DNA of 64,000 bases from Coraliomargarita sp. (GCA_965216325.1 OZ244160.1:1920001-1984000); one strand, 5' to 3'; positions 22,963-51,919 are shown, numbered from the stretch's first letter. A program made the numbers and translations. The notes: generated by a model from the sequence alone, not told the origin.

Positions 22963-22963
<1 letters not shown>
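22855..22963. repeat. REP-like pair (22855-22914) plus CCGCCTAAAGGCGGGACCCCAACC (22940-22963)
   Basis: GTAGGGCTTCTGCTTGCAG...GTGCAAGCACGAGCCC; the 24-mer is identical to 54272-54295. Confidence 0.7.
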
Positions 22964-24171
<1,208 letters not shown>

Positions 24172-24184
24172 GATGCGAAAGGTG

Positions 24185-24215
24185 AACCGTTAATTTACGT
24201 TAATTGACGTTAATT
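24185..24215 (+). repeat. 31-bp arm of three decamer (AATTDACGTT-like) units
   Basis: aaccgttaatttacgttaattgacgttaatt. Confidence 0.85.
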
Positions 24216-24264
24216 TTTTTGCGATAAATGCGTGAGGCTGAAAATGCGTGTTTTAGAATTTGGC

Positions 24265-24648
24265 TTATGATGGAGCTAGTGTGACTTTGCGCCACTGTAA
24301 ACTTGGGTGTTTGAAATTGATGATGAGTCCAGTGGTTTTTCCAGTGATGCGTAAATATGTGAGCATCTGGCCTAGCTCGTAGTCACCGATGGCTTCGATG
24401 GTTTTGGTGTCTACTATGAGCGCTTCCTCGACTTCAAGGTCTGGGATGTATTCGTCTACCTTAATGTCTCGATAGAGGACAGGATAGTTGGCTTGTTGAG
24501 TAAATGAAATGCCGAGGTGTTTCAGTTCCACGCATAGCGCACGCTCGTAGGTCTTCTCCCTTAAGCCGTAACCAAGGGTGGAGTGCACGGTCATAGCCGC
24601 ACCAACAACGCGATAGATCAAATCATCGATGTCCTCAGGCTCCGTCAT
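24265..24648 (-). CDS. GxxExxY protein (PD-(D/E)xK-like fold)
   Basis: GAAMTVHSTLGYGLREKTYERAL..EL...Q...PV.Y...Y.PDL.VE...Q.L.YL..T....GLIINF. Confidence 0.93.
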   Translation of the reverse strand: MTEPEDIDDLIYRVVGAAMTVHSTLGYGLREKTYERALCVELKHLGISFTQQANYPVLYRDIKVDEYIPDLEVEEALIVDTKTIEAIGDYELGQMLTYLRITGKTTGLIINFKHPSLQWRKVTLAPS

Positions 24649-24656
24649 GCGAGAGA

Positions 24657-24687
24657 AATTAACGTTAATTGACGTAAATTAACGGTT
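24657..24687 (-). repeat. Inverted 31-bp decamer arm (29/31 complementary to 24185-24215)
   Basis: aattaacgttaattgacgtaaattaacggtt; overlaps the plsC stop codon. Confidence 0.85.
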
Positions 24688-25328
24688 TAAATCACCACTT
24701 CCTGCGGTGGTTGGAGTGCGGCGATGCGTTCCATGATTCGGCGGGAGGCTTCGAGGTAGCGCTCGGGGTGGTCTTTGCCCGGGTCGATCTCTTCTGTGGT
24801 CATGGGTTCGCCGTAAACGATTTGAATGTGGCCGCCGAGCTCGGGGAGTTTGCGGTGGCGTCCATAGGCTTCGTAGGTGCCGAAGAGTCGAGTCGGAATC
24901 ACGGTTGCGCGGGACTTGCAGGCAATCATGCCCGCGCCCGGCTTGGGTGATTGTAGGGCGCCGTCCGCTGAACGCGTGCCTTCCGGATAGATCGCGATCG
25001 AGCCCTTATTCTTGAGGGACTTGAAAATGGCTTTGAGGGAAGAGACGTCTGCGTTTTCGCGGGAGACCGGAATGGTGCCGATGGCTTCGAGGCCCTTGCC
25101 GAATTGCCCTTTAAAGAGCGTGTCGCGGGCGAAATAGTTGATCTGGCGCATGACTTGGCAGCCGATTGCGGGCGGATCGAAGAAACTGACGTGGTTGGCC
25201 GCAAAGATCACGCTGCCCTTCAGCGGAACTGCATCGATGTTGGTCGTGCTGTAGTCGTATAAGGTGTTGAAGAACCAGTCGGCGGTGACGCGGACGGCCT
25301 CATACAGTGGTGGAATTTGCGGACGCAT
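24687..25328 (-). CDS. plsC: 1-acyl-sn-glycerol-3-phosphate acyltransferase
   Basis: NHVSFFD (HxxxxD), YPEGTRS, G...IA. Confidence 0.9.
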   Translation of the reverse strand: MRPQIPPLYEAVRVTADWFFNTLYDYSTTNIDAVPLKGSVIFAANHVSFFDPPAIGCQVMRQINYFARDTLFKGQFGKGLEAIGTIPVSRENADVSSLKAIFKSLKNKGSIAIYPEGTRSADGALQSPKPGAGMIACKSRATVIPTRLFGTYEAYGRHRKLPELGGHIQIVYGEPMTTEEIDPGKDHPERYLEASRRIMERIAALQPPQEVVI

Positions 25329-51647: not shown

Positions 51648-51672
51648 ACAGCTTAGAGTTGATTGAACTCAC

Positions 51673-51705
51673 AGCCCTGCGTTCGTCATGAGCGCGGGGC
51701 TTTTT
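51673..51705 (+). terminator. Rho-independent terminator
   Basis: AGCCCTGCGTTC-gtcat-GAGCGCGGGGCT-TTTT. Confidence 0.75.
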
Positions 51706-51769: not shown

Positions 51770-51919
51770 AACCGTTAATTTACGTCAATTAGCGTTAATT
51801 CTATTATACGTGAACCGACTATGACGTGCTTCTGTCTGGAATCGAGTGTCCGCCGATAGAGCAGTCTCATCTACTCAGATGCATTGGAAATTAACGTAAA
51901 TTGACGTTAATTAACGGTT
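51770..51919. repeat. Gene-less copy of the decamer-arm element that flanks GxxExxY
   Basis: aaccgttaatttacgtcaattagcgttaatt (51770-51800) and aattaacgtaaattgacgttaattaacggtt (51889-51919) around an 88-bp spacer. Confidence 0.85.

Follow-up and report, generated by a model that had tools for sequence, protein, structure and literature searches.

What kind of element is represented by the lone GxxExxY gene which, boxed by two inverted repeat arms, separates a plsC-like gene from a purM-like gene in Coraliomargarita sp.? This gene is found in a window of 64,000 nucleotides (the whole stretch of DNA that was analysed), corresponding to positions 1920001-1984000 of the source genome, which is a single contig (C1) of 3.06 Mb. 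Together with its arms it forms a block of 503 bp, referred to here as the cassette (24185-24687 of the window). We estimate at about one half the probability that this is a selfish cassette similar to the intervening sequences (IVS) of 23S rRNA, whose arms are sequence-specific sites, probably for the putative nuclease that the cassette itself encodes. The gene and the arms form a single unit in inheritance, in loss and in exchange between genomes, and many short unique intergenic segments lie between the same arms in genomes where the gene is present or was until recently. In open-access papers and preprints, we found neither a description of this cassette nor any publication linking the GxxExxY family to flanking repeats. 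In what follows, G000 designates the source genome, the other G numbers designate related genomes, many of which are draft or metagenome-derived, and L numbers designate fetched loci.

The presence of a gene boxed by repeat arms was confirmed. The first-pass annotation had placed a GxxExxY gene in the plsC-purM junction between arms that are 29/31 complementary, one overlapping the plsC stop codon and the other ending 13 nt before the purM ATG; the arm pattern, the Pfam and TIGRFAM matches and the coordinates all agree with this description. The features are as follows.

24657..24687, minus strand: 5'-side arm (relative to the gene), AACC followed by three phased decamers ACGTnAATnn
24265..24648, minus strand: GxxExxY gene, 127 amino acids (aa) plus stop codon, PF13366/TIGR04256, PD-(D/E)xK fold
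24216..24264, minus strand: spacer from the stop codon of the gene to the 3'-side arm, read from the sequences
24185..24215, plus strand: 3'-side arm, ending 13 nt from the start codon of the purM-like gene (ATG at 24171)
24687..25328, minus strand: plsC-like acyltransferase gene (PF01553), directly upstream and on the same strand as the cassette gene
22963..24171, minus strand: purM-like gene of the aminoimidazole ribonucleotide (AIR) synthase type (PF00586/PF02769), directly downstream and on the same strand

The two arms differ at 2 of 31 positions. The 31-nt arm pattern has four matches in the window and none in 100 dinucleotide shuffles. The outer base of the 5'-side arm (24687) is shared with the plsC-like gene as the last base of its stop codon, and the ATG of the GxxExxY gene begins 8 nt past the inner end of this arm, a type of arm that recurs at 14 related junction loci. 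Read on the plus strand, the spacer contains a run of T and, at 24226-24234 and 24242-24250, two copies of AAATGCGTG; this subterminal repeat is present in 2 to more than 10 copies in related elements, as read from their sequences. The promoter scan detected no sigma-70-like promoter inside the element, and no Rfam family matched across 24000-24900 at E-values up to 1.

The protein is matched by PF13366 (PDDEXK_3; E-value 2.3e-33, 115.5 bits for a cut-off of 22), which is the only Pfam family matched, and by TIGR04256 (GxxExxY; E-value 2.9e-36, 124.4 bits for a cut-off of 35). Across 21 diverse members, E31, D70, K82 and Q94 do not vary and position 80 is conserved as D or E (D80-x-K82 here). 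The structure model (mean predicted local distance difference test, pLDDT, 92.9) displays a PD-(D/E)xK core, and the nearest solved folds are of the restriction-endonuclease-like, lambda-exonuclease, Cas4 and Hjc types, with modest template modelling (TM) scores of 0.4-0.55. The homodimer prediction gave a score of 0.01, which counts neither way. The sequence search of the PDB gave no match at E-values up to 1, and the PADLOC defence models gave 0 families at E-values up to 0.01. A published survey gives the GxxExxY family no known function and mentions that it was transferred multiple times (PMC3424549).

Each arm is built of AACC and three ACGTnAATnn decamers at 10-bp spacing. ACGT and AATT being palindromes, the motif is found on the opposite strand as well, shifted by 5 bp. 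Outside AACC, a G is found in most copies, usually after a T-rich stretch, and this is mirrored on the other side. Read from upstream, the arm presents a stop codon in each frame (a TGA or TAA formed with the flank, the TAA of AAC-CGT-TAA, and another TAA deeper in the arm); the TGA of an arm also ends the cmk gene of G080. With stops in all frames, one of them formed with the T-G/A that usually flanks the arm, the element could probably land at the end of a gene without harm to the operon.

The first-pass annotation had noticed this kind of arm in two pairs, and the search of the source genome, of which all but 24,000 bases were covered, extends it to about 30 loci. They comprise 15 clean inverted pairs of 83-503 bp under a strict pair rule, two looser pairs and solo arms, and three minimal palindromes consist of the outer parts of two arms abutting each other (584216, 716146 and 929694). 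In one of these, C1:584216-584246, it is as if an interior had been cleanly removed. The elements are localized 0-30 bp from the ends of the neighbouring open reading frames (ORFs), mostly between genes of the same strand, and no direct repeat was seen at the element ends among the approximately 30 loci. Only two PF13366 genes are present in the source genome. The second GxxExxY gene (C1:246411-246782) lies antisense between a menD-like and a menB-like gene, both named from their translations, and is boxed by inverted arms of 29-31 bp made of another word, three CACnAAAA units (C1:246364-246861; L063:663-1164); a solo copy of this type of arm is found at C1:1021586. Two further elements (C1:2017848-2017960 and 2037678-2037770) contain a single arm of the window type, after which come a run of T, a motif similar to GAAATGCGTG and then 5-8 tandem copies of the 8-mer GTCCTCTG. 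They look like chimeras of two different repeat-arm families, and a piece 90% similar is present in G001 (L040). Other intergenic inverted-repeat families exist in the source genome, for example at C1:1435090-1435190, where GGAGGGCAATGCTCCGTC... is paired with its complement.

The second arm pair of the window, reported by the first-pass annotation around a spacer of 88 bases, is matched by the same pattern on both sides.

51770..51800, plus strand: left arm of the gene-less pair, pattern match
51801..51888: unique interior of the gene-less pair, 88 bp
51889..51919, minus strand: right arm of the gene-less pair, pattern match

The name of empty twin has to be dropped for this pair, which does not represent the gene element in emptied form: its interior is unrelated to that element and to all other arm-pair interiors of the genome. 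Among the 101 genomes of the bacterial family, this interior was found only in G000 and at the orthologous site of G001 (L031; 94% identical). The pair is placed between convergent gene ends, about 65 bp after a GC-rich hairpin with a T run (51672-51705 of the window), terminator-like, which follows the upstream gene. The 17 interiors of G000 display no mutual similarity, one segmental duplicate excepted. In the analysis of 36 arm pairs and their 36 interiors, taken from five genomes, matches were observed only at orthologous sites of G000 and G001 and in two within-genome pairs, and a translated search with 20 cassette proteins gave 0 hits to a GxxExxY remnant at E-values up to 0.1. As there is no gene remnant in these 36 interiors, an origin of the gene-less pairs by decay of the gene was rejected. 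The proposal that both window elements form an autonomous/non-autonomous pair is not supported in the form in which it was made: the gene-less pairs do not derive from the gene element by deletion, and they are not copied from each other. Two interiors of G000 contain repeats found elsewhere in the genome (808395-808758, with 37 BLAST hits, and 1434060-1434259, with 18). No transposase-sized gene was found among the ORFs listed between 24 arm pairs (17 from G000 and 7 from relatives), few of which were run through Pfam.

The positions of the arms are mostly lineage-specific. Twenty arm loci from four other genera were compared with G000: one shares both flanks with an arm locus, one shares a single flank, and at four of them the two flanks are adjacent and arm-free in G000. 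Concerning G001, 10 of its 15 arm loci share their site with G000 and three sites are found in G001 only. The orthologous interiors of G000 and G001 are 94-97% identical versus 73-94% for the flanks or adjoining genes; these conserved interiors may be functional (as small RNAs, for instance) or recently exchanged. Joints between two arms seen in some contigs were considered as possible excision products and rejected, since they are other arm pairs located elsewhere in those organisms.

The relation between gene and arms was followed in the 101 family genomes with purpose-written scripts for the inverted-repeat scans and counts, an arm being defined as a match to the pattern with at most one mismatch. 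At least one arm is present in 41 genomes and at least four arms in 28. A profile of the cassette clade separates the orthologues (at least 160 bits, 21 genomes) from the other paralogues (at most 148 bits) with a clear gap, and none of the 60 arm-free genomes contains an orthologue. Among the 28 arm-rich genomes, 17 possess an orthologue of at least 160 bits, two a partial gene copy (G001 and G074) and three a gene remnant (G089, G075 and G043); in three others the junction is occupied by a PF05635 cassette (G049, G062 and G065), one displays a relic of another arm type (G063), and the last two are incomplete genomes where plsC was not found (G042 and G076). The arm family is thus found only in genomes with the gene clade, its remnants or a junction element, apart from a few orphan exceptions. 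Among 41 relatives, the arm pattern is confined to this bacterial family, and the reversed pattern used as control gave 0 matches in all genomes searched. These counts are given without a test statistic because related genomes, and the copies inside one genome, are not independent. The non-carriers G010, G021 and the group G007/G022/G024 branch among carriers in a tree of three genes with several weak nodes, which implies that gene and arms were jointly lost or gained at least three times.

The arm subtype of a genome tends to follow the clade of its resident gene. In hosts of the T clade, the first variable base of the arm is T in 44 of 53 arms (19/22 in G000, 12/16 in G001 and 13/15 in G002), and in hosts of the G clade it is G in 39 of 51 arms (18/21 in G023, 15/20 in G013 and 6/10 in G015). 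For G006, where the T-clade gene is broken, the figure is 4/8. The association extends beyond the family. In a cross-phylum sample with one genome per species (80 loci with relatives of this gene clade, 73 of them scannable), inverted repeats hugging the ORF reach a score of at least 14 in 53 of the 73 loci versus none of 272 control windows displaced by 600 or 900 bp (maximum 12). The enrichment of arms next to GxxExxY genes, on which the first-pass annotation had staked its interpretation, is therefore observed in many phyla, and these counts support a link between arm and gene that is real and far beyond chance. The cross-phylum arms read AACCG(C/T)nAATnnACG(C/T)nAAT, often with the ATG inside the arm; within this family, the arm words of sister clades are ACACGGAT or ACGCAGAT. 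Of 20 other GxxExxY genes present in the relatives, 19 have ORF-hugging arms made of about three phased units of 9-10 bp, with other words.

The complete unit of gene and both arms is found in the order cmk-plsC-cassette-purM in G002, G003, G013, G015 and G023. The cassette occupies the same junction in G014, where a degenerate outer arm pair surrounds an intact inner one, and the junction element of G001 is split across two contig ends. The plsC-purM junction accounts for 14 of the 80 cross-species loci, and the records concerned all belong to Coraliomargaritaceae, Puniceicoccaceae or Opitutales; metagenome contigs of related strains also contain the element in this junction. The gene-plus-arms unit was detected at two other sites, cmk/plsC in G080 and upstream of an ExbB-like gene in L096. 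In thirteen other family genomes plsC and purM are adjacent, and one of these (G005) displays apparently decayed arms. The comparison of this junction proposed in the first-pass annotation thus gave filled junctions as well as adjacent plsC and purM. In two Thalassobacterium loci (L012:3130-3990 and L084:1240-2130), an intact cassette lies within a degenerate outer arm pair; between stop codon and 3' arm stand from four to more than ten copies of a unit of 14-15 nt similar to CCCACGCATTTCCAG, and the reverse complement of this unit is present beside the 5' arm.

The phylogenetic tree of 20 cassette proteins contains three clades, T, G1 and G2, and was compared with the plsC tree obtained from the same loci. 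In the T clade, the distance from the inner end of the arm to the start codon ranges from 2 to about 200 nt (8 nt for the cassette of the window and about 200 nt at the two Thalassobacterium loci), and in the clades G1 and G2 the start codon is included in the inner decamer, so that the proteins begin with MNVN... or MDVN... The cassette gene tree conflicts with the plsC tree, and the arm subtype follows the gene clade. Indeed, the plsC of G003 groups with that of G000 (support 0.975) and its cassette belongs to G1; the plsC genes of L004 and L086 are sisters (0.94) and their cassettes belong to G1 and T, respectively; and the cassette of G080 is of clade G2 versus T in its congeners. Between L087 and L089, the synonymous divergence (dS) of the cassette gene is 0.038 versus 0.247 for the neighbouring plsC. 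Intact cassette genes are under purifying selection, judging from ratios of nonsynonymous to synonymous divergence (dN/dS) of 0.03-0.11, similar to those of plsC (0.04-0.18). Between G000 and G002, the dS of the gene is 1.33, near saturation, yet at most one of the 30 arm positions compared is different.

The gene is also often found broken. Frameshifts were observed in G006, G011 and G067 (assembly error being possible for some frameshifts of draft genomes) and stop codons in G083; the gene of G089 has an internal deletion and a stop, and G043 and G075 retain 5'-truncated remnants with the 3' arm only. In G065, G062, G049 and G080, the plsC-purM junction contains a small ORF with repeat arms of its own. 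This ORF belongs to PF05635 (23S rRNA-intervening sequence protein) in G065 (E-value 4e-30) and G049 (5e-29), and look-alikes are present in G062 and G080. The junction of G063 contains a solo arm of an ACAC-word type. At L179:850-2201 of G080, plsC stands between two hairpin cassettes, with a GxxExxY gene on the cmk side and, on the purM side, an ORF similar to IVS proteins preceded by AATAGCTnATGGCTAATAGCT-type repeats.

The sequence of the arm is conserved, not just the pairing of two arms, and each gene clade has its own arm variant. Over the 36 pairs, identity between both arms reaches 95% at the 24 fixed positions. At the six variable positions, partners share 3.11 matches on average versus 2.93 +/- 0.18 when arms are shuffled among elements of the same source, a value reached by 849 of 5000 permutations. 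For the 11 pairs of known transcription direction, 29 of the 42 mismatches are transversions, and the G-U-compatible mismatches number 5 in the sense and 8 in the antisense orientation. No hairpin co-variation between arm partners was thus found, neither in the 36 pairs nor in the 11 pairs with direction. Since the fixed positions are kept and the variable ones are not matched between partners, it is the word of each arm that is conserved and not a partner-specific pairing.

These observations would be explained by an IVS-like selfish cassette with arms that are sequence-specific sites. With decamers one helical turn apart, the arms would be bound on one face of the DNA, most likely by the encoded nuclease, which might cut at the conserved outer AACC end, or close to it, and thereby favour insertion, replacement or exchange of the DNA bracketed by arms. 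When co-transcribed, the arms could pair into a long stem of the kind cut by RNase III in the 23S rRNA IVS. Several points weigh against this explanation. The binding or cutting of the arms and the movement by the nuclease are inferred. The genomes G049, G062 and G065 are fairly complete and contain 11-31 arms with no cognate gene, and conversely G003, G068 and G071 have an intact gene and only 2, 2 and 3 arms, including its own pair. Other cargo is also found between the arms: G001 and G002 have an LMWPc-like ORF (112 aa, weak PF01451 match; L009:418-818 and L010:3064-3461) at the site where G000 has the 31-bp palindrome C1:584216-584246, and G000 has a 121-aa ORF (1069577-1069942) at the site where G001 has a pair of 96 bp. 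A copy-and-delete origin is not visible, as the gene-less pairs share no interior, and no target-site duplication or clean empty site is readable between G000 and G001 because their intergenic flanks are too diverged. Finally, the genome counts are non-independent, as said above, and several nodes of the three-gene tree are weak (supports 19-55). A bolder version makes the 127-aa GxxExxY protein the sole enzyme of a new class of minimal mobile elements of about 430-500 bp, which would read decamer arms and move or swap the interiors. In this version, the dispersed pairs would form a stock of micro-cassettes (small RNAs and small ORFs) that can be exchanged, somewhat as in an integron lacking its integrase, and the ORF-bearing IVS of 23S rRNA would be the rRNA-resident branch of this class; we regard this version as possible and, on the whole, doubtful.

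Three other explanations have to be weighed. The element might act at the RNA level as an IVS does, RNase III excising the cassette at its stem from a cmk-plsC-purM transcript, with the gene as a passenger spread by transfer and homologous recombination. Its layout corresponds to that described for the Coxiella 23S rRNA IVS (in the part of PMC4990558 dealing with it), PF05635-type genes with their own arms occupy the same junction in the four genomes named above, and the reuse of this junction by several cassette types fits recombination through conserved flanks. The surrounding genes are all co-directional with no promoter-like site inside the element, and the arms close the predicted minimum-energy RNA fold. 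A contig from an RNA library spans the purM start, the arm and the 3' end of the gene, which is a weak hint only, because such libraries may contain DNA. A stem, however, needs pairing and not a fixed word, and here the word is fixed, specific to the gene clade across phyla, and its variable positions do not co-vary; its mismatches are mostly transversions and the G-U-compatible ones are not enriched in the sense orientation. Moreover, the second pair of the window lies between convergent gene ends, behind the terminator-like hairpin, and the lineage-specific insertion of unique segments bracketed by arms is left unexplained, so that we judge an action at the RNA level alone to be unlikely.

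The arms could also belong to an ordinary family of MITEs (miniature inverted-repeat transposable elements) or of repetitive extragenic palindromic (REP) type, with an enzyme encoded elsewhere or no longer present and a GxxExxY gene that is merely trapped cargo. The LMWPc-like and 121-aa ORFs between identical arms, the arm populations without the gene in G049, G062 and G065, and the chimeric elements joining this arm to another repeat type are in favour of such a family. Yet the arm design accompanies this gene subfamily across phyla (the 53/73 loci cited above), its subtype tracks the gene clade, and the start codon is localized inside the arm in several clades. The interiors are unique and not copies, no direct repeat was seen flanking the elements, and neither a transposase-sized gene among the listed ORFs of the 24 pairs (few of them submitted to Pfam) nor a GxxExxY match in the 36 interiors was detected; trapped cargo is in our opinion quite improbable. 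According to the last explanation, the decamers are operator-like sites of a host protein that punctuates operons, and the GxxExxY gene has been domesticated at plsC-purM. Decamers phased at 10 bp suit a protein bound on one helix face, the position is syntenic across six genera, the selection on intact copies is strongly purifying, and in two species the orthologous interiors are better conserved than their flanks. A domesticated gene is difficult to reconcile with repeated breakage and loss (G006, G011, G067, G083, G089, G043, G075 and the relic of G005), with replacement by unrelated cassettes, with a gene tree that disagrees with the host tree, with a patchy distribution over many phyla and with arm positions that are mostly lineage-specific. 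We therefore give host regulation very little credence.

The spread of the ORF-bearing rRNA IVS is described as an open question for decades (PMC4990558). The bacterial family studied here offers a compact comparative system, in which a single junction holds three clades of nuclease cassettes, a relic arm of a fourth type and IVS-protein cassettes, and in which the number of dispersed arms ranges from 0 to more than 40 per family genome. GxxExxY proteins form a large family distributed across many phyla. If the nuclease does read its own arms, the cassette would be a very small autonomous element with a new module of sequence-specific DNA recognition; otherwise the arms remain a conserved signal by which operons are shaped in many phyla.

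Among the known systems, free-standing homing endonuclease genes are also small nuclease genes located between conserved genes, with presence or absence across relatives, and they display a similar pattern, suggestive of invasion, decay, loss and re-invasion, and a gene tree incongruent with the host tree. To our knowledge, homing genes neither carry conserved inverted arms built of repeats nor leave families of gene-less arm pairs. The reading as an integron attC site was discarded: the arms consist of decamers in tandem, and neither an integrase nor an array is found around them. The GGGAATC heptamers of Xanthomonas (PMC4692102) are similar in their tandem repeats, their convergent inverted intergenic pairs and their positions, mostly conserved between related species; they are treated there as quadruplex-forming, and the words "nuclease" and "S23" have 0 occurrences in the passages of that paper that were searched. 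As in MITEs, terminal inverted repeats are present. A MITE derived by internal deletion was rejected, since no gene remnant exists in the 36 interiors and no transposase-sized ORF in the 24 listed pairs, of which few were Pfam-tested.

The layout of the cassette is that of the REP-associated tyrosine transposases (RAYTs) and of the REP doublets forming hairpins (REPINs), as described in PMC3116915 and PMC3337134: a gene flanked by inverted repeat copies, many gene-less extragenic doublets capable of forming hairpins, and co-occurrence of gene and repeat family. This part of the analogy drawn by the first-pass annotation stands. Contrary to RAYTs, the enzyme has a PD-(D/E)xK fold (only PF13366 was matched) and not that of an HUH Y1 transposase; the repeat consists of three phased decamers and not of a single REP palindrome; the spacers of the doublets are unique and not conserved; and the gene has been repeatedly exchanged and lost instead of being stably vertical. 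As their interiors are unshared and contain no gene remnants, the gene-less pairs also differ in behaviour from REPINs or MITEs in which the doublet replicates as a whole.

The 23S rRNA IVS encoding S23p/PF05635 proteins, found in Coxiella and Leptospira among others, come nearer. In the account of PMC4990558, the Coxiella IVS measures 428 nt, with a terminal stem of 28 bp, tandem heptamers before the start of the ORF and cutting by RNase III. Both systems are units of about 430-500 bp whose terminal inverted repeats pair over about 28-31 bp into a stem, with tandem short direct repeats in the arms beside the ORF start and one small ORF, often decayed, in the loop; both can be called selfish elements whose spread is unexplained. 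The cassette differs from these IVS in its location between protein-coding genes (plsC-like and purM-like) and not in helix 25 or 45, in its cargo, a PF13366 protein of PD-(D/E)xK nuclease fold and not S23p/PF05635, and in the dispersal of its arms as many gene-less pairs. Because the very same junction is occupied in some relatives by 23S-rRNA-IVS-protein cassettes with repeat arms of their own, the IVS type of hairpin cassette is the closer analogue.

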